From NCBI GenBank assembly GCA_000004985.1, contig GG738856.1: 64,000 nt of DNA; one strand, 5' to 3'. Within the stretch, counting starts at the first letter, position 1. Every line of letters begins with the position of its first letter. The translations under genes and the position numbers were made by a program. Below are positions 15,484 through 64,000 of the stretch, in pieces. Source of the DNA: Naegleria gruberi. Taxonomy: Eukaryota. The notes beneath the pieces are model-generated. The model was not told the origin of the DNA, did no database searches, and was given only the letters and a program-made list of their open reading frames with translations.

Positions 15484-18400
15484 NNNNNNNNNNNNNNNNN
15501 NNNNNNNNNNNNNNNNNNNNNNNNNNNNNNNNNNNNNNNNNNNNNNNNNNNNNNNNNNNNNNNNNNNNNNNNNNNNNNNNNNNNNNNNNNNNNNNNNNNN
15601 NNNNNNNNNNNNNNNNNNNNNNNNNNNNNNNNNNNNNNNNNNNNNNNNNNNNNNNNNNNNNNNNNNNNNNNNNNNNNNNNNNNNNNNNNNNNNNNNNNNN
15701 NNNNNNNNNNNNNNNNNNNNNNNNNNNNNNNNNNNNNNNNNNNNNNNNNNNNNNNNNNNNNNNNNNNNNNNNNNNNNNNNNNNNNNNNNNNNNNNNNNNN
15801 NNNNNNNNNNNNNNNNNNNNNNNNNNNNNNNNNNNNNNNNNNNNNNNNNNNNNNNNNNNNNNNNNNNNNNNNNNNNNNNNNNNNNNNNNNNNNNNNNNNN
15901 NNNNNNNNNNNNNNNNNNNNNNNNNNNNNNNNNNNNNNNNNNNNNNNNNNNNNNNNNNNNNNNNNNNNNNNNNNNNNNNNNNNNNNNNNNNNNNNNNNNN
16001 NNNNNNNNNNNNNNNNNNNNNNNNNNNNNNNNNNNNNNNNNNNNNNNNNNNNNNNNNNNNNNNNNNNNNNNNNNNNNNNNNNNNNNNNNNNNNNNNNNNN
16101 NNNNNNNNNNNNNNNNNNNNNNNNNNNNNNNNNNNNNNNNNNNNNNNNNNNNNNNNNNNNNNNNNNNNNNNNNNNNNNNNNNNNNNNNNNNNNNNNNNNN
16201 NNNNNNNNNNNNNNNNNNNNNNNNNNNNNNNNNNNNNNNNNNNNNNNNNNNNNNNNNNNNNNNNNNNNNNNNNNNNNNNNNNNNNNNNNNNNNNNNNNNN
16301 NNNNNNNNNNNNNNNNNNNNNNNNNNNNNNNNNNNNNNNNNNNNNNNNNNNNNNNNNNNNNNNNNNNNNNNNNNNNNNNNNNNNNNNNNNNNNNNNNNNN
16401 NNNNNNNNNNNNNNNNNNNNNNNNNNNNNNNNNNNNNNNNNNNNNNNNNNNNNNNNNNNNNNNNNNNNNNNNNNNNNNNNNNNNNNNNNNNNNNNNNNNN
16501 NNNNNNNNNNNNNNNNNNNNNNNNNNNNNNNNNNNNNNNNNNNNNNNNNNNNNNNNNNNNNNNNNNNNNNNNNNNNNNNNNNNNNNNNNNNNNNNNNNNN
16601 NNNNNNNNNNNNNNNNNNNNNNNNNNNNNNNNNNNNNNNNNNNNNNNNNNNNNNNNNNNNNNNNNNNNNNNNNNNNNNNNNNNNNNNNNNNNNNNNNNNN
16701 NNNNNNNNNNNNNNNNNNNNNNNNNNNNNNNNNNNNNNNNNNNNNNNNNNNNNNNNNNNNNNNNNNNNNNNNNNNNNNNNNNNNNNNNNNNNNNNNNNNN
16801 NNNNNNNNNNNNNNNNNNNNNNNNNNNNNNNNNNNNNNNNNNNNNNNNNNNNNNNNNNNNNNNNNNNNNNNNNNNNNNNNNNNNNNNNNNNNNNNNNNNN
16901 NNNNNNNNNNNNNNNNNNNNNNNNNNNNNNNNNNNNNNNNNNNNNNNNNNNNNNNNNNNNNNNNNNNNNNNNNNNNNNNNNNNNNNNNNNNNNNNNNNNN
17001 NNNNNNNNNNNNNNNNNNNNNNNNNNNNNNNNNNNNNNNNNNNNNNNNNNNNNNNNNNNNNNNNNNNNNNNNNNNNNNNNNNNNNNNNNNNNNNNNNNNN
17101 NNNNNNNNNNNNNNNNNNNNNNNNNNNNNNNNNNNNNNNNNNNNNNNNNNNNNNNNNNNNNNNNNNNNNNNNNNNNNNNNNNNNNNNNNNNNNNNNNNNN
17201 NNNNNNNNNNNNNNNNNNNNNNNNNNNNNNNNNNNNNNNNNNNNNNNNNNNNNNNNNNNNNNNNNNNNNNNNNNNNNNNNNNNNNNNNNNNNNNNNNNNN
17301 NNNNNNNNNNNNNNNNNNNNNNNNNNNNNNNNNNNNNNNNNNNNNNNNNNNNNNNNNNNNNNNNNNNNNNNNNNNNNNNNNNNNNNNNNNNNNNNNNNNN
17401 NNNNNNNNNNNNNNNNNNNNNNNNNNNNNNNNNNNNNNNNNNNNNNNNNNNNNNNNNNNNNNNNNNNNNNNNNNNNNNNNNNNNNNNNNNNNNNNNNNNN
17501 NNNNNNNNNNNNNNNNNNNNNNNNNNNNNNNNNNNNNNNNNNNNNNNNNNNNNNNNNNNNNNNNNNNNNNNNNNNNNNNNNNNNNNNNNNNNNNNNNNNN
17601 NNNNNNNNNNNNNNNNNNNNNNNNNNNNNNNNNNNNNNNNNNNNNNNNNNNNNNNNNNNNNNNNNNNNNNNNNNNNNNNNNNNNNNNNNNNNNNNNNNNN
17701 NNNNNNNNNNNNNNNNNNNNNNNNNNNNNNNNNNNNNNNNNNNNNNNNNNNNNNNNNNNNNNNNNNNNNNNNNNNNNNNNNNNNNNNNNNNNNNNNNNNN
17801 NNNNNNNNNNNNNNNNNNNNNNNNNNNNNNNNNNNNNNNNNNNNNNNNNNNNNNNNNNNNNNNNNNNNNNNNNNNNNNNNNNNNNNNNNNNNNNNNNNNN
17901 NNNNNNNNNNNNNNNNNNNNNNNNNNNNNNNNNNNNNNNNNNNNNNNNNNNNNNNNNNNNNNNNNNNNNNNNNNNNNNNNNNNNNNNNNNNNNNNNNNNN
18001 NNNNNNNNNNNNNNNNNNNNNNNNNNNNNNNNNNNNNNNNNNNNNNNNNNNNNNNNNNNNNNNNNNNNNNNNNNNNNNNNNNNNNNNNNNNNNNNNNNNN
18101 NNNNNNNNNNNNNNNNNNNNNNNNNNNNNNNNNNNNNNNNNNNNNNNNNNNNNNNNNNNNNNNNNNNNNNNNNNNNNNNNNNNNNNNNNNNNNNNNNNNN
18201 NNNNNNNNNNNNNNNNNNNNNNNNNNNNNNNNNNNNNNNNNNNNNNNNNNNNNNNNNNNNNNNNNNNNNNNNNNNNNNNNNNNNNNNNNNNNNNNNNNNN
18301 NNNNNNNNNNNNNNNNNNNNNNNNNNNNNNNNNNNNNNNNNNNNNNNNNNNNNNNNNNNNNNNNNNNNNNNNNNNNNNNNNNNNNNNNNNNNNNNNNNNN

Positions 18401-19244
18401 NNNNNNNNNNNNNNNNNNNNNNNNNNNNNNNNNNNNNNNNNNNNNNNNNNNNNNNNNNNNNNNNNNNNNNNNNNNNNNNNNNNNNNNNNNNNNNNNNNNN
18501 NNNNNNNNNNNNNNNNNNNNNNNNNNNNNNNNNNNNNNNNNNNNNNNNNNNNNNNNNNNNNNNNNNNNNNNNNNNNNNNNNNNNNNNNNNNNNNNNNNNN
18601 NNNNNNNNNNNNNNNNNNNNNNNNNNNNNNNNNNNNNNNNNNNNNNNNNNNNNNNNNNNNNNNNNNNNNNNNNNNNNNNNNNNNNNNNNNNNNNNNNNNN
18701 NNNNNNNNNNNNNNNNNNNNNNNNNNNNNNNNNNNNNNNNNNNNNNNNNNNNNNNNNNNNNNNNNNNNNNNNNNNNNNNNNNNNNNNNNNNNNNNNNNNN
18801 NNNNNNNNNNNNNNNNNNNNNNNNNNNNNNNNNNNNNNNNNNNNNNNNNNNNNNNNNNNNNNNNNNNNNNNNNNNNNNNNNNNNNNNNNNNNNNNNNNNN
18901 NNNNNNNNNNNNNNNNNNNNNNNNNNNNNNNNNNNNNNNNNNNNNNNNNNNNNNNNNNNNNNNNNNNNNNNNNNNNNNNNNNNNNNNNNNNNNNNNNNNN
19001 NNNNNNNNNNNNNNNNNNNNNNNNNNNNNNNNNNNNNNNNNNNNNNNNNNNNNNNNNNNNNNNNNNNNNNNNNNNNNNNNNNNNNNNNNNNNNNNNNNNN
19101 NNNNNNNNNNNNNNNNNNNNNNNNNNNNNNNNNNNNNNNNNNNNNNNNNNNNNNNNNNNNNNNNNNNNNNNNNNNNNNNNNNNNNNNNNNNNNNNNNNNN
19201 NNNNNNNNNNNNNNNNNNNNNNNNNNNNNNNNNNNNNNNNNNNN
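15484..19244. other. Assembly gap (run of N, 3761 nt).
   Basis: Literal N characters. Track ORFs crossing this run (15424..19269, 15479..19249) are artefacts. Confidence 1.
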
Positions 19245-21064: not shown

Positions 21065-21947
21065 NNNNNNNNNNNNNNNNNNNNNNNNNNNNNNNNNNNN
21101 NNNNNNNNNNNNNNNNNNNNNNNNNNNNNNNNNNNNNNNNNNNNNNNNNNNNNNNNNNNNNNNNNNNNNNNNNNNNNNNNNNNNNNNNNNNNNNNNNNNN
21201 NNNNNNNNNNNNNNNNNNNNNNNNNNNNNNNNNNNNNNNNNNNNNNNNNNNNNNNNNNNNNNNNNNNNNNNNNNNNNNNNNNNNNNNNNNNNNNNNNNNN
21301 NNNNNNNNNNNNNNNNNNNNNNNNNNNNNNNNNNNNNNNNNNNNNNNNNNNNNNNNNNNNNNNNNNNNNNNNNNNNNNNNNNNNNNNNNNNNNNNNNNNN
21401 NNNNNNNNNNNNNNNNNNNNNNNNNNNNNNNNNNNNNNNNNNNNNNNNNNNNNNNNNNNNNNNNNNNNNNNNNNNNNNNNNNNNNNNNNNNNNNNNNNNN
21501 NNNNNNNNNNNNNNNNNNNNNNNNNNNNNNNNNNNNNNNNNNNNNNNNNNNNNNNNNNNNNNNNNNNNNNNNNNNNNNNNNNNNNNNNNNNNNNNNNNNN
21601 NNNNNNNNNNNNNNNNNNNNNNNNNNNNNNNNNNNNNNNNNNNNNNNNNNNNNNNNNNNNNNNNNNNNNNNNNNNNNNNNNNNNNNNNNNNNNNNNNNNN
21701 NNNNNNNNNNNNNNNNNNNNNNNNNNNNNNNNNNNNNNNNNNNNNNNNNNNNNNNNNNNNNNNNNNNNNNNNNNNNNNNNNNNNNNNNNNNNNNNNNNNN
21801 NNNNNNNNNNNNNNNNNNNNNNNNNNNNNNNNNNNNNNNNNNNNNNNNNNNNNNNNNNNNNNNNNNNNNNNNNNNNNNNNNNNNNNNNNNNNNNNNNNNN
21901 NNNNNNNNNNNNNNNNNNNNNNNNNNNNNNNNNNNNNNNNNNNNNNN
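21065..21947. other. Assembly gap (run of N, 883 nt).
   Basis: Literal N characters. Confidence 1.
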
Positions 21948-55068: not shown

Positions 55069-58000
55069 ATGGTGAAAAAGGCAAAAAAACCAAGCCATCA
55101 TGATGAAGAGGAAATAACTGACGAGGATTTTATGGATATTATGGATTGCCTAAATCCCAGACAATTCGAACAAATGTCCAGATCGTTGGGATATACTGTA
55201 AGAGATTATGATCATGATTCCGATGATTCATATTTTAGTGATGAGTGTATTGTAGCACCAACACCAGAGTTGGAAACTTTGTTAATTAAAAGAGATTGTC
55301 TTGCTGAGAAATTACTTCCACCAGATAAAAACATCAAGAAGAGAATATTGGATTTGTTGGAGCAGAGTTGTGTATTGAATGGAGATTATATTACTGGAGG
55401 AAAATTGGATTCGAATTACTTGATGCCTGCTATTGAAATTCTTCTTGAGGATAATGGAAAATACAAGCCATTACCACTGCCAATTGTTTATGCGGAACAG
55501 GTCACTGAATTGATAAGGAATTGTTCTTTTGGAAGGACTGAAAATGTAAACATTACCAAATCATGGCACTTGGATCCACATAAATTCAGAATTACCAACC
55601 CTAAATGGGATTCGTCAATTGAAGAATTAGTTAGAAAGGTCAAAGCAAAGCTTGGTATTTTGAATGAAAAGAAGATTGACTTCTCACTTTCCAAAATGAT
55701 ATTGCATGAGGAGGGAGGTTTATTTGATTTTTGCACGGATATTGATAAAGAGGATGGAATAGTTGCTAACTTGTTAGTTCAATTACCTAGCTCATTCACT
55801 GGTGGTAATTTTACATTGTCTCACAGCGGAAAGGAAATGAAATTCCAATACAAAGATGAATCCACCTATTCTCCATACTATGTCAGCTTTTACTCTAATT
55901 GTGAACACAAAGGAGAACCACTAACCTCTGGATACAGATTATCGTTGGTTTATAATTTGAAATATTCTGGATCTGATAGAATTGCACCATATGACAGTGC
56001 TACACAATTGAGAGATATGCAGAATATTATAGAAACTTGGATCAAGGTTCCAATGTATACCAAGCTCTGTTACATTTTAGAAAACAAATATACAAAGGCC
56101 ACCCTTGGTCCATCTGTGTTGCAAGGAAAGGACAAAATTGCTTATCAGTTATTTTCACAACTTGAACACGTTGAGGTTCATTTAGCAACTTTAGAAAAAC
56201 ATGAAGAAACCATATGCCTCTCTGATATGAAGTATGATACTGAACTCAGGTATAAGGCTCATACAACAAATAATGTACGAATTGATTTTATCGTTGAAGA
56301 CGAAGTGCTCCCTGATGTGGCTAGAAGGAGAATGGAGCTAACTCATAAGGAAGTAAGTATTATTGAGATTCGCGCTTCAGTTTAATTATTACAGGTTGAA
56401 GATGAGGAAGATTTTACTGAATATATGAAGATAAATCGTTGCTACAAGAGTACATGTATCCTCATATATCCAAAGCAACTCAAATCACTCTGTAATCAAC
56501 TAGACCCTTTAGAAAAATTTTGGAAAGATTATAAGGAACAAAAAACAGATAAGAAGAAAAACATTTTGATGGCATACACTTCGTCTCTCCTCTGCTGTTC
56601 TGAAGACAATCTTAGTACAAGGAGTTTTGTAGACATGTCAAAGTTTTCAGATATTTGCCTTACCTTGAATTATCTTCCATTAAGCTTGAAATATGTGGAA
56701 AAGGTATTAATTGTAGATGAATTCAAGACTGAGGAAGCAACAATTTTATTAACCAAGGTAATCAAGAATCATGGCACTGAACATTTCAAGGAATTAGTCA
56801 GTAATAGTTTAGAAAAGTGTTGTAAGTTGATATTTTTGGTAATAGTACTAAATATTTTTATTCTTTTCATAATTACAGTCAAGACTAAAAACTATTATTC
56901 AAATGAAATTACAGCAATTGGAAAAATGATTTTGGAGCTGAACGAGCAATCTTGGATTACTCATTTTGTTGATAAGGTAGTATCACTAAAGTCATTAAAT
57001 ATGGAGTGGGCACATCCAGATGCTATTATGATCATTTTCAAATTGAAAGACCAATATCCAAGTTACTCAGAAAAGCTAAACCAATTTATTGATGCGTATG
57101 TCAAATCAGAGCTGTCTATTGATAAATCAAGAGTTGGTTGCTCTCTAATCAATTCAGAAGTTGTCATCAAATTGAACATGATTAACTTGGCTCTACCTTT
57201 ATTAAATAGAATGTCATGTAAAATGGACGATAAGGAATTGAATGAGGTTGTAGCAGTGATGAAACATTTTGGCATTGAAAAGACTGAACCTTTATTAGTT
57301 CTGGCTCTGAAAGATCTGCATCGATACCCCTTCACCCCAAGGAGGCTTGCTATTCTACAATTATCCATGCAGAGCAGTGCAGAAGCTAAACACTTATCTG
57401 ACAAAATATTTGAAAGTATCATCCAAAATTTTGATTTCAAATTGGAAAATGCATCAGAATACGTTGATTTATTAACCTTTTTCAGAAATAATGATAGGAG
57501 TGCAGATGAAATAAGATTTTCCAATGCACTGATTCAAAAAATATCAATTCCAAAGTATTCCTATTCCTTGGTTAAAGAAATAATCAAAACTAATGGAATT
57601 GAATGTTTTGGAACTGGAACTGGATTGCGGATGATTTTGGAACATTCCTACAAAGTATTATTTAATTCGGCTACTACACCCAATGCTTCCCATAGCTTGG
57701 ACTTGGACTTGGAAGGAACCTCTACGTGGGTTTTTAATCACATTACCCTTTCATGTTCATGTGAGCATTGTGAAAAGGTAAAAAAGTTTCTCATTTCAAA
57801 TGAAAAGGTATTTTCTCTAAAAGAGAAACTAAATGCCCGAAAACATGTAGAAACAATTCTTAAAGAACAAGTAGACCTTATCAAGGAAACAATTAAAGCA
57901 GGCTCTCCACAAACTCTCAAACTCACCAAGACGAGAATGAGCCCAGATGCAAAAAAGGCAATTACTGGCTCAATTGAAAATATCCTTAAACAATACATAG

Positions 58001-58095
58001 AGTATGCAACCAAATCAGACCAGAAAGCTCTTGCAAGACCTTCCGAATCAAATGTTGCTGATGAACCTCCAACTAAGAAAGTCAAACAAGAATAG
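55069..58095 (+). CDS. Large protein of about 995 aa with a 2OG-Fe(II)-oxygenase-like region. Two exons, 55069..56352 and 56395..58095.
   Basis: The donor AAGGAA|GTAAGT at 56353 and the TTATTACAG| acceptor at 56394 form a 42-nt intron. They join the 438-aa and 556-aa track ORFs in frame (...ELTHKE|VEDEEDFTEYMKINR...). 'LHEEGGLFDFCTDIDKEDG...FTGGNFTLSH...CEHKGEPLTSGYRLSLVYNL' loosely fits an HxD/E...H...RxS oxygenase pattern. The functional call is weak. Confidence 0.5.
56353..56394 (+). other. Spliceosomal intron (42 nt, contains an in-frame TAA).
   Basis: GTAAGT donor and CAG acceptor. Both flanking ORFs are in the same frame. Confidence 0.55.
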
Positions 58096-58174: not shown

Positions 58175-59453
58175 TTAATCCTCTTCATCTCTACAACAAA
58201 GACAACAGAAACAATAGGCAATAGGTAACAAAATATAACTGAAACAATTTAAACAATTTGTTCCCTGTTTTGCTTGGCTATTTTCTTGAATGAGTTTAAC
58301 ATTTAAATATTTTCTGAATGATTTCTCATTTTCTAAATTACAATTCTCAAATATAATTTCTTTCAGAGATGGATTGTTCTTAATAAATTGATGTTCATCT
58401 CCCAAAACACAACTGATGAAATGAATCCTTTCTAAATTTGGATAATTATTAGAAATTGAGAAATCAATATTTTGAGTTGTAAACTTCTTATTTCGAAGTG
58501 TCAATTCAAAGAGTGATTCCATTTTCAATGAAAATAATGAATTTAAATCCACTTCACCTTTATCCAAATCCAACTTTACAATTTTCAATTCCTTAATATA
58601 ATTAAGAATCTCCAAACTGTCATCCGTCAAAGTTAATTCCCTCAAATTCTTGTTAAATATACCAGAATAATTTAATTTTGAAAAATCCAAATTATATACT
58701 CTTCGAATTCCGAGTTTAGTCAACTTGGAAAAAGCTAAAGGAAACAACTGAGGTGCTTTTTCAATAATTTCCTTTTGATTTCTGAAATGTAGAGCCAAGT
58801 CAAGTTCTTTCAAATTTAACTTCACTACTCATAATATTGTGAAAATCTGTTTCATGGTCAACTTCAATTTTCAAGGTTTTCAAACTTTTCATTGGTGAAA
58901 TATTTGGCGTCTTGGGAAATCCAGTTAATTTGTATTCTTCCAGATTGAATGGAATTTTGTAAAATTCATCTAGAATATATTGTGGAATTGAACTATCAGA
59001 AAGGTTAATTTCCAATGCTTTCAGTTGACTATAATGAGTTTGAAACCAATTGATCAATTCATTCTTGAATGATTTCATAAATAGTTTGAGATTAGTTACA
59101 TTTCCAATATATCTTGGTAAATAAACTGCTGATCCAAGATTTGATGATTCAATAAAATTGCATTCTCCATAAAGAGAAAGAGTATCAACCCTTGAAAAAC
59201 CATTCATTTCGAATAATTCACAGGGTATGTTTCTAACATTTATCAATTTCAATTTTGTAATATTGGTCTGTTTATCTTTTAACTGATTAATAGTTTTAGT
59301 GAGTTTGGTTGCATGATCTATTTTCAATTCGAATCCGAGGTTTTGCTTTGCTTGATAGAAATTGTGATTTACGACTCGAAAACGAAATGTTTCTCTTCCT
59401 TCTAAAAAACAAAGAATCAACTGCACAACATCTACAGTCAGAAAGTGCTGCAT
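58175..59453 (-). CDS. F-box-like / leucine-rich-repeat protein split into two overlapping frames (59453..58800 and 58825..58175). This is either a sequencing frameshift or a pseudogene.
   Basis: The N-terminus 'VVQLILCFLEGRETFRFRVVNHNFYQ' is F-box-like, and LRR units run through both ORFs. The frames overlap over about 26 nt at 58800..58825 within a run containing 'aaatttgaaag'. No GT..AG pair there gives a plausible intron. Confidence 0.4.
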
Positions 59454-60940: not shown

Positions 60941-63475
60941 TTAAAAAACTATATCTAAATCCTTTAACTTGCCAAATAACTCTTTTCCAACTTTCTTTTC
61001 CAGGTCTTCTAAATCTTTGAACCCCTCTTTATCAGATGTTCTTTTCGTTATGATATCATTCGCAGCTTGTTTGCCAATACCAAAGTTTTCATATCCTTTT
61101 GCTTCACACTCATTAATATGAAGATAATTGGTGGAATATAAATATTTCATATGCTCAGATAGTGTTCCGAAATGTTTGGAAAAGTTATCTTTGTAGATCA
61201 TTATCAAATTATCGGGAAGTTTTTCTGATTCGGGCATATCTGTAATTGATTTTCCTGTTACAATAACTGTGATGTTTGTTACTGGAATTATCTTATTTTG
61301 TGTTGGTAAATCAAAACTATTGTTTTTGATTATTTCTACCTCTTCTATTGTAGAGAAATCCAGTTTTGCTGTTTTTGAATCAGCCCATTTACATTGTAAA
61401 TGAAACACACAATCACTACCATTAAGCTCATTTTTCATACCCAACACAAGAACATCACCAGCCGAGGCATCAGGGACATTTTTGATGATATAAACTCCCT
61501 TAGTGTTATTTGATGGATTATAAGTAAATGAAGTAGAACCAGATTTTAGATTAAAATATTTTCTCGTTGACATATCACTCTCCAATCTTTTGTCATGTGT
61601 ACATTTGTAACATGAGTGGATTTTCTCTATCTTTAAATTTGCTGTTGCTGGATTCATTTTAGCAAATGGAAACAATTCTTTCAATGTCAACGATTTCTGA
61701 TCCTTCAATAATGTTAAAATCAAATAATAATATTCAAGAATCACATCCTCCCAAGATGATACAGAAGAATCTGAATTAAATAAATTGTTATAAATTTCCC
61801 TTGGCTCAAGTGTCATTAATGATGGAAGAATTACTGGAGGATAAGTGATCAAAAATTCTTCCTGGCCCTTAGCCTTTTCTAACATTACCAATCCTTGATT
61901 TTCTAAATCAGACCAAGTCAAATCATCTTCTACTTTATCATTTTTTGCTACCACTCTTCTTGTAACCACAAGTTGTAATATCTTATTTTTAACTTTAGAA
62001 GAGATAAATGAAACATCATATTTTTCTAATATTTTTGTCTTTGCTTCCCACCAAGCTGCTTGAGGAAGCAAATCTCTGAACAATAATTGCACCAAATAAA
62101 ATTCTATTCCTCTTGCATAACCCCCAAATGTCCTTAAATAATGTTTAAATGAAACATTTTTTCTCCATCCTTGCAATTTGTTGTATGTTTGGACCAAATC
62201 GTCCATAATCTGATACAATTCTGTTGTTGGTAACATAGGCTTTGTTGGAATGTATTTTGGAGAATAAGCACTTCCCAAAAAACTCTTTTTTATGCCTGTA
62301 TAGTAAGTTCCCACAAATAGAGGATAAATAATGCCACAGACTGGATGCTGCATATACTGTCCAATAGACGAAATAATTACATCAAGTGGAGATGGTCTAT
62401 TAATGTGTGAATTAATTATTTGTACCTCATCCATACCAATAAAGAAGTTGGTATGTTCGTTTGGAGAAATTACAGCATTACAGGCTATTAATATAGTTTC
62501 AATATCGAGAACCTTTCTTTTCCCAAAAAATTCATTCCATTTTCGTAACAACCCAGTAAAAACAGAGGTTTCCCCTTTCGAACCTGTAAAAGCACAAAGT
62601 ATTGAATAAACAATTCTTACACACAAACCATTCATGGGGTTTGGTTCATTCATAACGTCCATCTTTGTTCCATTCCCAAATGATATAAATAACGGAAAAT
62701 ATTGTTTGTTGTTGTACATATCAAGACCAATCTCCTGCAATATCCTTGATTTTCCAATTCCAGGAGCTGCAGCTATGAATGGGAGCTCAATATTATCTCT
62801 TAGGGCCTTTTTTTCATTTTCTATCAAGGCAGTATAAGGTCTGTAGCTTTCCATAAACATATTTACAACCTCTTCTCTTCCAATAAATTTGAAATTAGAT
62901 CCAAAACCAAAAACAACAACCGAAGAAGACTCCACTATATTTTTAGGTTCAAATATACCAACAACTTTGTCAGTTCTATCAGTCATAGCACCATTTGTGC
63001 TAATTACAAGCTTGATGAACGCTGAAATATCTTCAGCGTCTATTGATTTGTTGGATTCTTCAATTTCTACTTGTTTTCTTTCAACAAACTCACTAATCAA
63101 CCAAACAGCAATGGGCTCTGCAACACTTTTCACCATTATTTTTCCTTCGTCCATCAAGGAGTCGACCATGGACTGTTTGGCTGTTTCTGGTGTTCCATTG
63201 CTTTTGATATTTGTTTCATAGGCATTAATAGCAATTAATAAATGGTTTCCGTTGAGAGCACTCAAAGGATATCTTCCATTTTGGTTTCGTTCTTTTTTTA
63301 CACAATCAATGGCTTCATCTTCAAAGTATAAATCATCCCGAAGAATTTCTAATACTTTATCATGATTCAATTTCATCATACCATTTAGTAATAAATTTGG
63401 TTTTGGTTTTTTAAACAATACCGAAGAAAACCCAATTGTTGGAGATTGACTTCTTTTCTTAATATCCTTGAACAT
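60941..63475 (-). CDS. Large P-loop NTPase (844 aa) with Walker A and Walker B motifs, a STAND/AAA-like core and a possible nuclease-like C-terminal module.
   Basis: Walker A is 'AAAPGIGKS' and Walker B is 'NFFIGMDEVQ'. The C-terminal 'GDVLVLGMKNELNGSDCVFHLQCKW' has D...(Q)xK spacing reminiscent of PD-(D/E)xK nucleases, which is speculative. Confidence 0.5.
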   Translation of the reverse strand: MFKDIKKRSQSPTIGFSSVLFKKPKPNLLLNGMMKLNHDKVLEILRDDLYFEDEAIDCVKKERNQNGRYPLSALNGNHLLIAINAYETNIKSNGTPETAKQSMVDSLMDEGKIMVKSVAEPIAVWLISEFVERKQVEIEESNKSIDAEDISAFIKLVISTNGAMTDRTDKVVGIFEPKNIVESSSVVVFGFGSNFKFIGREEVVNMFMESYRPYTALIENEKKALRDNIELPFIAAAPGIGKSRILQEIGLDMYNNKQYFPLFISFGNGTKMDVMNEPNPMNGLCVRIVYSILCAFTGSKGETSVFTGLLRKWNEFFGKRKVLDIETILIACNAVISPNEHTNFFIGMDEVQIINSHINRPSPLDVIISSIGQYMQHPVCGIIYPLFVGTYYTGIKKSFLGSAYSPKYIPTKPMLPTTELYQIMDDLVQTYNKLQGWRKNVSFKHYLRTFGGYARGIEFYLVQLLFRDLLPQAAWWEAKTKILEKYDVSFISSKVKNKILQLVVTRRVVAKNDKVEDDLTWSDLENQGLVMLEKAKGQEEFLITYPPVILPSLMTLEPREIYNNLFNSDSSVSSWEDVILEYYYLILTLLKDQKSLTLKELFPFAKMNPATANLKIEKIHSCYKCTHDKRLESDMSTRKYFNLKSGSTSFTYNPSNNTKGVYIIKNVPDASAGDVLVLGMKNELNGSDCVFHLQCKWADSKTAKLDFSTIEEVEIIKNNSFDLPTQNKIIPVTNITVIVTGKSITDMPESEKLPDNLIMIYKDNFSKHFGTLSEHMKYLYSTNYLHINECEAKGYENFGIGKQAANDIITKRTSDKEGFKDLEDLEKKVGKELFGKLKDLDIVF

Positions 63476-63694: not shown

Positions 63695-64000
63695 ATGCAA
63701 CAAGCTGTTCTTGGAGGCCAATTTCAAACACCTTCAAAGTTATTTCCCTTACTGATGAATTCGGGAGAGGAATTTTCAAATTATGATGATGAGGATTTCT
63801 ATCGGGATGATGCTAAGGAAACAACATCAAGCTCGCGACCGGATATGACTTTACTGAATTCTCTGAAGGAGTGGATTAATGTATTGGTAGGATTGGATTT
63901 GGTGGAAATTAAAACGCAAAATCCATTACAGAGTTTTTTGAATTGTTTTAAGGACGGAGTATTGCTGTGTAGAATTGTTGAAAAGATTAAATTAAAACAC
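63695..64000 (+). CDS. 5' part of a calponin-homology (CH) domain protein. The frame is open to the window end.
   Basis: ATG at 63695 and no stop through 64000. 'LKEWINVLVGLDLVEIKTQNPLQSFLNCFKDGVLLCRIVEKIKLK' is CH-domain-like. The track did not report it because no stop lies inside the window. Confidence 0.45.
   Translation, partial: MQQAVLGGQFQTPSKLFPLLMNSGEEFSNYDDEDFYRDDAKETTSSSRPDMTLLNSLKEWINVLVGLDLVEIKTQNPLQSFLNCFKDGVLLCRIVEKIKLKH

Follow-up and report, generated by a model that had tools for sequence, protein, structure and literature searches.

What kind of protein is encoded by a long, intronless gene that lacks any database match, and what might such a protein do for a free-living amoeba? 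The question is raised by a gene on the minus strand of contig GG738856.1 (assembly GCA_000004985.1) of Naegleria gruberi, located within a stretch of 64,000 nucleotides that is referred to here as the window. A first-pass annotation had described the product as a large P-loop NTPase with a STAND-like core and a possible nuclease module at its C-terminus, and had pointed to Crinkler-type effectors as proteins of comparable build. By family identity, as judged from sequence and profile comparisons, the protein is very probably a member of the Crinkler-RHS (CR) superfamily. The fuller description, which we hold to be probable with somewhat less assurance, is that it carries the commonest C-terminal type of this superfamily, consisting of an NTPase, a winged-helix/helix-turn-helix (HTH) unit, a restriction-endonuclease (REase)-fold domain and a ComEA-type helix-hairpin-helix (HhH) region, on a helical header that is specific to the Heterolobosea.

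When searched alone, the 844-residue protein has no match at E<=10 in Pfam or among the PADLOC defence-system models (0 families), and none among the sequences of the PDB. An exact-sequence look-up likewise gives no record of the protein. A word-indexed search returns two proteins, a near-identical one from a metagenome run and a hypothetical protein of Naegleria lovaniensis that is 56% identical. The profile made from the query and these two sequences, used in an exhaustive HMMER search with a cutoff of E<=1e-3, recovers 86 representatives, 24 of them at E<=1e-10. Close full-length relatives are found in N. lovaniensis, N. fowleri, Willaertia magna and an unannotated assembly, shorter or fragmentary copies occur in N. 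gruberi and N. fowleri, and the distant relatives come from Mucoromycota/Glomeromycota fungi (Haplosporangium, Mortierella, Dentiscutata, Jimgerdemannia and Rhizophagus) and from Phytophthora sojae.

The identity of the family emerges from a Pfam scan of every member of a 51-sequence family alignment. Four members harbor the Crinkler effector N-terminal domain (PF20147), a ubiquitin-like (Ubl) header, with scores above the Pfam cutoff in P. sojae P0095 (89.9 bits), Haplosporangium P0028 (56.8), Dentiscutata P0052 (50.3) and P0054 (37.9). Ten members contain HHH_3 at the C-terminus, and AAA_22, AAA_16 and ATPase_2 match the Walker region weakly. At source, P0030 is named a "Crinkler family protein" and P0026 and P0095 are named "Crinkler effector protein N-terminal domain-containing". 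Past its header, P0028 has a layout identical to that of the window protein, to which it aligns by BLASTP over residues 187-831 (E 7e-16), and the P. sojae Crinkler P0095 aligns over residues 131-617 (E 7e-10). When seven sequences from the Heterolobosea are compared by hhalign with six that either bear a Crinkler header or are named Crinkler, the probability is 100% and the E value 6.8e-52 over 604 columns; residues 179-828 of the query are homologous to the module that lies behind true Crinkler headers. The heterolobosean profile also aligns with the Rhizophagus Crinkler (CRN) protein RirT063220 (probability 99%, E 7.6e-18) and with the first 399 residues of RiCRN2, the only part of that Rhizophagus protein compared (probability 93.9%, E 1.5e-7).

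These proteins belong to a described architecture. RiCRN2 is listed by Zhang et al. as "CR-Ubl1+CR-NTPase4+CR-REase6+ComEA-HHH" (PMC6131194 Table S1). In the parts of Zhang et al. (2016) that are relayed by PMC5289972, PMC11064341 and PMC6131194, the combination of NTPase, HTH and REase accounts for most Phytophthora CRN C-termini and for more than one quarter of all Crinkler-RHS C-termini, and within CR proteins toxicity is presumed to come from the REase, with the NTPase regulating it (both via PMC5289972, Fig. 1 legend and section 11). The window protein is assigned to the CR superfamily because the NTPase-HTH-REase-HhH module is present, and is not a Crinkler in the strict sense because the defining header was tested for and is absent. 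The motifs quoted in the first-pass annotation are confirmed, and its interpretation is supported, the Crinkler-type guess included.

The organization of the protein can be followed along a full AlphaFold2 model, built with an 88-sequence family alignment (mean pLDDT, the per-residue confidence score, 90; pTM, the predicted template-modelling score, 0.83). Structure prediction had been proposed at the outset as a check, and it resolves five parts, including the ATPase and the PD-(D/E)xK fold. The features, in window coordinates and from the N-terminus onward, are as follows.

60941..63475, minus strand: open reading frame (ORF) of 844 amino acids plus stop codon, in a single exon, with an ATG start and without an internal stop
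63404..63475, minus strand: disordered basic N-terminus, KKR...KKPKP (residues 1-24; pLDDT <50)
62981..63400, minus strand: all-helical header domain (residues 26-165; helices at 30-162, pLDDT ~90)
62240..62941, minus strand: two short pre-Walker helices with a conserved F-x-F-x-GRE motif (193-201), followed by a five-stranded AAA+-type P-loop alpha/beta core (residues 179-412)
62747..62773, minus strand: Walker A, AAAPGIGKS (residues 235-243), read from the sequence
62420..62446, minus strand: Walker B, FFIGMDEVQ (residues 344-352), read from the sequence
61946..62239, minus strand: helical lid (residues 413-510; helices at 417-505) in which GG-x-(P/A)-R (G451, G452, R455) is conserved
61778..61945, minus strand: small winged-helix/HTH-like domain (residues 511-566; strands 514-516, 531-534 and 541-544; helices 521-526 and 547-566)
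61121..61762, minus strand: PD-(D/E)xK REase-fold nuclease domain, alpha/beta (residues 572-785), with a small beta-rich insert (595-652)
61748-61750, 61454-61456 and 61388-61396, minus strand: putative catalytic residues E576, D674 and Q694-x-K696, respectively
60944..61120, minus strand: ComEA-type tandem HhH, GIGKQAANDIITKR...FKDLEDL, with paired helices (residues 786-844)

Features expected of a CR module are present, namely Walker A (GIGKS, 239-243), Walker B (MDE, 348-350) and an REase fold with conserved catalytic residues. The two Walker motifs from which an NTPase had first been proposed are borne out by their conservation in the family and by their position within an AAA+ fold in the model. 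Counted in the 88-sequence alignment, Walker A is conserved at 93-97% (G239 in 69/72, G241 in 72/74 and K242 in 71/74), and in Walker B the acidic residues D349 and E350 are found in 67/69 and 62/68. Within the lid motif, G452 is retained in 52/64 and R455, a putative sensor-2-like arginine, in 57/64; the variable position of this motif (451-455) is P in 37/64 family members and A in the window copy. The winged-helix region carries a conserved T-x-x-x-LE-x-x-G motif, and the unit at 511-566 corresponds to what is called "HTH" in the NTPase+HTH+REase architecture as published. The ComEA-type tail is a module predicted to bind DNA without sequence specificity, and the family profile matches the HhH of EEPD1 (E 7.6e-9) and ComEA (E 3.8e-6) at the level of sequence.

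The best structural matches of the ATPase core are AAA+ proteins of the ORC/Cdc6 type, with NRC4, NRC2, ZAR1-like, Apaf-1-related and Avs proteins also listed. The fold alignments to ORC/Cdc6 and PAB2304 span 240-288 residues and reach past the ATPase core. A replication-type housekeeping AAA+ protein, a paralogue of ORC, Cdc6 or RFC, had been considered from the beginning as the outcome that would speak against an NTPase-nuclease, and it did not materialize: the nearest relatives are Crinkler proteins, and a nuclease fold was found. A fusion to nuclease and HhH is, moreover, foreign to ORC, Cdc6 and RFC. There is no sequence-level match to such families and the distribution is patchy and lineage-restricted, so that a housekeeping role is effectively excluded and can be given almost no credence. 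PAB2304/SSO1545, the archaeal "Walker-type ATPase" of Pfam family ATPase_2, and Cdc6/Orc1 are likewise without a nuclease or HhH fusion, and the window protein has no Pfam match to them above the curated threshold.

The proposed STAND-like core fares differently in its parts. An NTPase, a helical domain of the GxP type and a winged helix, as found in STAND NTPases, are all present in the model. STAND NTPases, however, end in a repeat sensor (LRR, WD40 or TPR), whereas the C-terminal half of the window protein is nuclease plus HhH, with no repeats in the model or by Pfam. Membership of the STAND class is therefore only partial, and the core may lie nearer either to STAND proteins or to classical AAA+ proteins of the ORC/Cdc6 type.

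The C-terminal part matches REase-fold proteins, including MspJI and AspBHI, and the defence nucleases Avs3/Avs4, Cap4, HamA, SduA and LmuA; it also matches ComEA. The nuclease-like spacing that had been noticed in "GDVLVLGMK...DCVFHLQCKW" corresponds to residues 673-697, which lie in the modelled restriction-endonuclease fold and include the conserved D674, Q694 and K696. In the family, E576 lies on the first helix and is retained in 56/66, the second core strand opens with D674 (53/60), and the third contributes Q694 (50/61) and K696 (50/58); N666 is also conserved (56/62). The window copy is intact at all of these positions, as it is at K242 and D349/E350.

The helical header is the least familiar part of the protein. 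It is around 140 residues in length and, among the 86 relatives, recurs in heterolobosean ones only, namely P0018, P0042, P0006, the Willaertia proteins P0003 and P0089, and P0067 of N. gruberi (NAEGRDRAFT_52188), which is 44% identical to the window protein over residues 22-149 (E 3e-22). Residues 26-165 have no match in Pfam, and the header used alone as the query in a word-indexed homology search finds nothing. Its alignment by hhalign with the Crinkler N-domain has a probability of 0.14%, and the same comparison is also negative for the N. lovaniensis homologue named PB1. Beyond the header, P0067 is almost unalignable; it retains a Walker-A-like G-x-G-K-S at 272 and a weak trace of the motif that closes the nuclease domain. 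P0067 may thus be a paralogue in decay, or else the module behind its header may have diverged very far.

Other members of the family carry the ATPase-nuclease module behind Ubl, SAM or indoleamine-2,3-dioxygenase-like domains. A SAM domain precedes it in P0017, and in P0090 by UniRef name only; the N-terminus of P0084 contains the dioxygenase-like region (E 9.6e-12); and P0002, the N. lovaniensis protein that is the nearest homologue, has a different N-terminus with the UniRef label PB1, which is not detected by Pfam. The swapping of headers on a conserved toxin module is a published hallmark of CR proteins (PMC5289972). Together with a small multigene family, including fragments, in N. fowleri, N. 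lovaniensis, N. gruberi and Willaertia, and with the lack of synteny described below, header swapping fits a conflict gene. N. fowleri is already on record with a gene that bears the annotation "crinkler (CRN) family protein" (PMC13380426), which may be one of the paralogues considered here.

How, then, might such a protein work? A biochemical mechanism as a nucleotide-gated DNA nuclease is somewhat favored from sequence and modelled structure. In this scheme, the HhH tail would tether the protein to the DNA backbone without sequence specificity, and the AAA+/STAND-like ATPase, together with its lid and winged helix, would act as a nucleotide-dependent switch, probably one that drives oligomerization. 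ATPase-driven assembly would then bring nuclease domains together or otherwise license them, after which the E...D...QxK domain would cut DNA, and the header would set the destination or the binding partner of the protein. The biological role would be one in conflict, either as a toxin directed against other cells, such as prey, competitors or hosts, or as a weapon against invading DNA inside the amoeba itself. The same model has been proposed for the NTPase-REase toxins of the CR superfamily, and it parallels that for bacterial ATPase-nuclease defence proteins.

Several observations weigh against a catalytically active, Crinkler-like toxin. The query has no Pfam match to the Crinkler Ubl header (PF20147) at E<=10; the LxLFLAK and HVLVxxP motifs are not found by regular expression in P0001-P0007, nor are they visible in the query; and no long hydrophobic stretch that would indicate a signal peptide can be seen by eye at the N-terminus. 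Since no signal peptide or other export signal is evident, the sense of an exported "effector" is unsupported. The third catalytic position, moreover, is occupied by Q694 where D or E is usual, and we know of no CRN of the NTPase-REase type with demonstrated nuclease activity.

The glutamine is the starting point for a rival in which the REase-like fold is catalytically dead and the protein is a DNA-binding regulator, with the HhH and the REase-like fold serving only to bind DNA. The HhH-containing PsCRN108 does bind heat-shock promoter elements through its HhH (PMC5289972 section 10). The hhalign alignment also suggests that P. sojae P0095 is without the QxK strand. A D...QxK arrangement is, however, an active variant in enzymes of the Mrr/MspJI type, including MspJI and AspBHI, which are themselves among the top fold matches, and the conservation of E576, D674, Q694 and K696 in around 82-88% of relatives argues for selection on the active site. 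Given this conservation, a dead nuclease is unlikely, and a licensed, active one is the reading that we retain.

The missing header and secretion signal bear more heavily on the question of where the protein acts. Because both the Ubl header, associated with translocation, and an evident secretion signal are absent, a serious rival is that the product never leaves the amoeba and serves as a cell-autonomous immune protein, a eukaryotic analogue of bacterial Avs/STAND-nuclease defence that is triggered by invading DNA or proteins from giant viruses, intracellular bacteria or transposons. The likeness of the ATPase core to NLR resistosomes and Avs3/Avs4, and of the nuclease to those of Avs3/Avs4, Cap4, HamA, SduA and LmuA, is in keeping with this, as is the suggestion that invasive DNA within the cell may be the target of certain CR proteins whose headers bind DNA (PMC5289972 section 11). 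The basic motif KKR-x13-KKPKP is also conserved in P0067, where it is internal; it appears to resemble a nuclear localization signal rather than a signal peptide, and its retention in this paralogue would suit a protein that stays within the cell. Against it stand the best fold matches, which are ORC/Cdc6-like AAA+ rather than STAND proteins, and the model, from which a repeat-type sensor is missing, so that there is no obvious recognition module. An immune protein of this kind is best described as a minority possibility.

A more specific version of the same idea is that the heterolobosean clade put its own helical domain in place of the export-associated Ubl header, and so produced an amoebal immune nuclease, a counterpart of the Avs type, that operates in the nucleus or cytoplasm when triggered by the DNA of giant viruses or endosymbionts. 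We consider this version improbable. If it were true, the helical header would be a new sensing or targeting domain.

The membership of the CR superfamily that we prefer can be set beside the systems that resemble it most closely. CR effectors of the kind described by Zhang et al. (2016), exemplified by RiCRN2 of R. irregularis, KAF9197305.1 of Haplosporangium and XP_009516073.1 of P. sojae, share with the window protein a homologous, collinear module comprising F-x-F-x-GRE, Walker A and B, the GGxPR lid, the winged helix, E...D...QxK and HhH. They differ in bearing a Ubl header, where the window protein has an all-helical domain and no evident secretion signal, and the window gene belongs to a free-living phagotrophic amoeba, not to a pathogen of plants or animals. 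Coupling of a P-loop ATPase to a PD-(D/E)xK nuclease is likewise seen in Avs3/Avs4, the type ISP enzymes (LlaBIII), McrBC, Hachiman HamA and Lamassu LmuA. In such defence proteins, both domains of which give structural matches, the nuclease is presumably licensed by nucleotide-dependent assembly, as is proposed here. The bacterial proteins nevertheless show no sequence-level homology to the window protein (0 PADLOC matches), which has a eukaryotic host, lacks sensor repeats and has a different domain order, with the nuclease at the C-terminus. AF1548 (PDB 1y88) and ComEA, both prokaryotic, are small proteins that stand alone and have no ATPase, and their likeness is at the level of the fold only (7% identity for AF1548).

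The architecture itself has been known since 2016, and no new principle is involved. What is gained is the placing of an unannotated amoebal protein, without database matches of its own, in the ATPase-nuclease toxin family of the Crinkler-RHS proteins, along with several uncharacterized Naegleria proteins that are newly assigned to the CR family. These include the paralogues FDP41_004768, FDP41_013710 and FDP41_008285 of the human pathogen N. fowleri, which are uncharacterized and fall in the same family. The heterolobosean-specific helical header is also new, and is a candidate for a targeting function. In the biology of Naegleria, the result provides a concrete candidate for a DNA-damaging toxin or a defence nuclease, and more generally it supports the view of CR modules as conflict genes that are widespread in free-living protists, beyond their role as virulence factors of plant pathogens.

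The surroundings of the gene bear on one further rival, a component of a still-mobile element in which a target-selection ATPase of the TnsC/MuB type is fused to a TnsA-like REase nuclease. A descent from transposon proteins of prokaryotes is stated for CR modules of the NTPase-REase type (PMC5289972 section 11), and the family is multicopy, with fragmentary members. The N. lovaniensis copy is also non-syntenic: at the locus of this closest named homologue (L001, PYSW02000008.1), the neighbors are Arf, patatin, glutathione-peroxidase and kinase genes, there is no synteny with the window gene within +/-10 kb, and no neighbor from that locus lies near the window gene. Yet a search for terminal inverted or direct repeats flanking the gene gives only chance AT-rich matches, within flanks of which ~500 bases upstream lie in the window; no transposase or integrase is found among the neighbors, which are phosducin-like, F-box-like and CH-domain genes; and no second copy was found within the 64-kb window. 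The base composition is native, with a GC content of 0.325 and a GC content at third codon positions (GC3) of 0.265, close to those of neighboring genes, and therefore gives no hint of recent foreign origin. On these grounds, a mobile element is very unlikely.

Upstream of the ATPase-nuclease gene, a divergent gene starts at 63695 (+) and runs past the end of the window, with 63695-64000 visible; the intergenic region between the two is 219 bp in length and has 22% GC. The first-pass annotation had described this neighbor as a divergent CH-domain gene with unusually GC-rich codons. The divergent arrangement is correct, the CH-domain match is weak and below threshold (E 2.3e-4, 21.8 bits against a Pfam cutoff of 26), and the GC3 of 0.333 is not unusually high, that of another neighbor being 0.318. 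On the downstream side lie a phosducin-like gene (Pfam E 3.6e-20), which occurs in identical form only in run ERR1078381, and an ORF with a weak F-box match (58800-59453, minus strand). The latter overlaps by 26 nucleotides with an ORF on the same strand (58175-58825) that has no significant Pfam match, and the pair at 58175-59453 may represent one F-box gene divided by an intron or a frameshift. An ORF of 556 amino acids at 56425-58095 (+) also has no significant Pfam match, its best one (E 0.056) falling well short of the curated cutoff.

The reading frame at the start of the gene deserves comment. A TG dinucleotide at ~63303-63304 of the window (codon ~58) is missing from an otherwise identical metagenome contig (L002), and this 2-bp deletion places codons 1-58 out of frame in that assembly. 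In N. gruberi P0067, residues 22-58 are conserved; this supports the window frame for codons 22-58 and suggests that it is the real one, the 2 bp missing from L002 being due to faulty assembly or to variation between strains. The window as a whole is AT-rich, at ~30% GC, and includes two assembly gaps, seen as runs of N at 15484-19244 and 21065-21947. In the 2-kb bins around these runs, GC falls to 0.09-0.14, lowered partly by the Ns themselves, and it is locally highest, at 0.408, between 28 and 30 kb.

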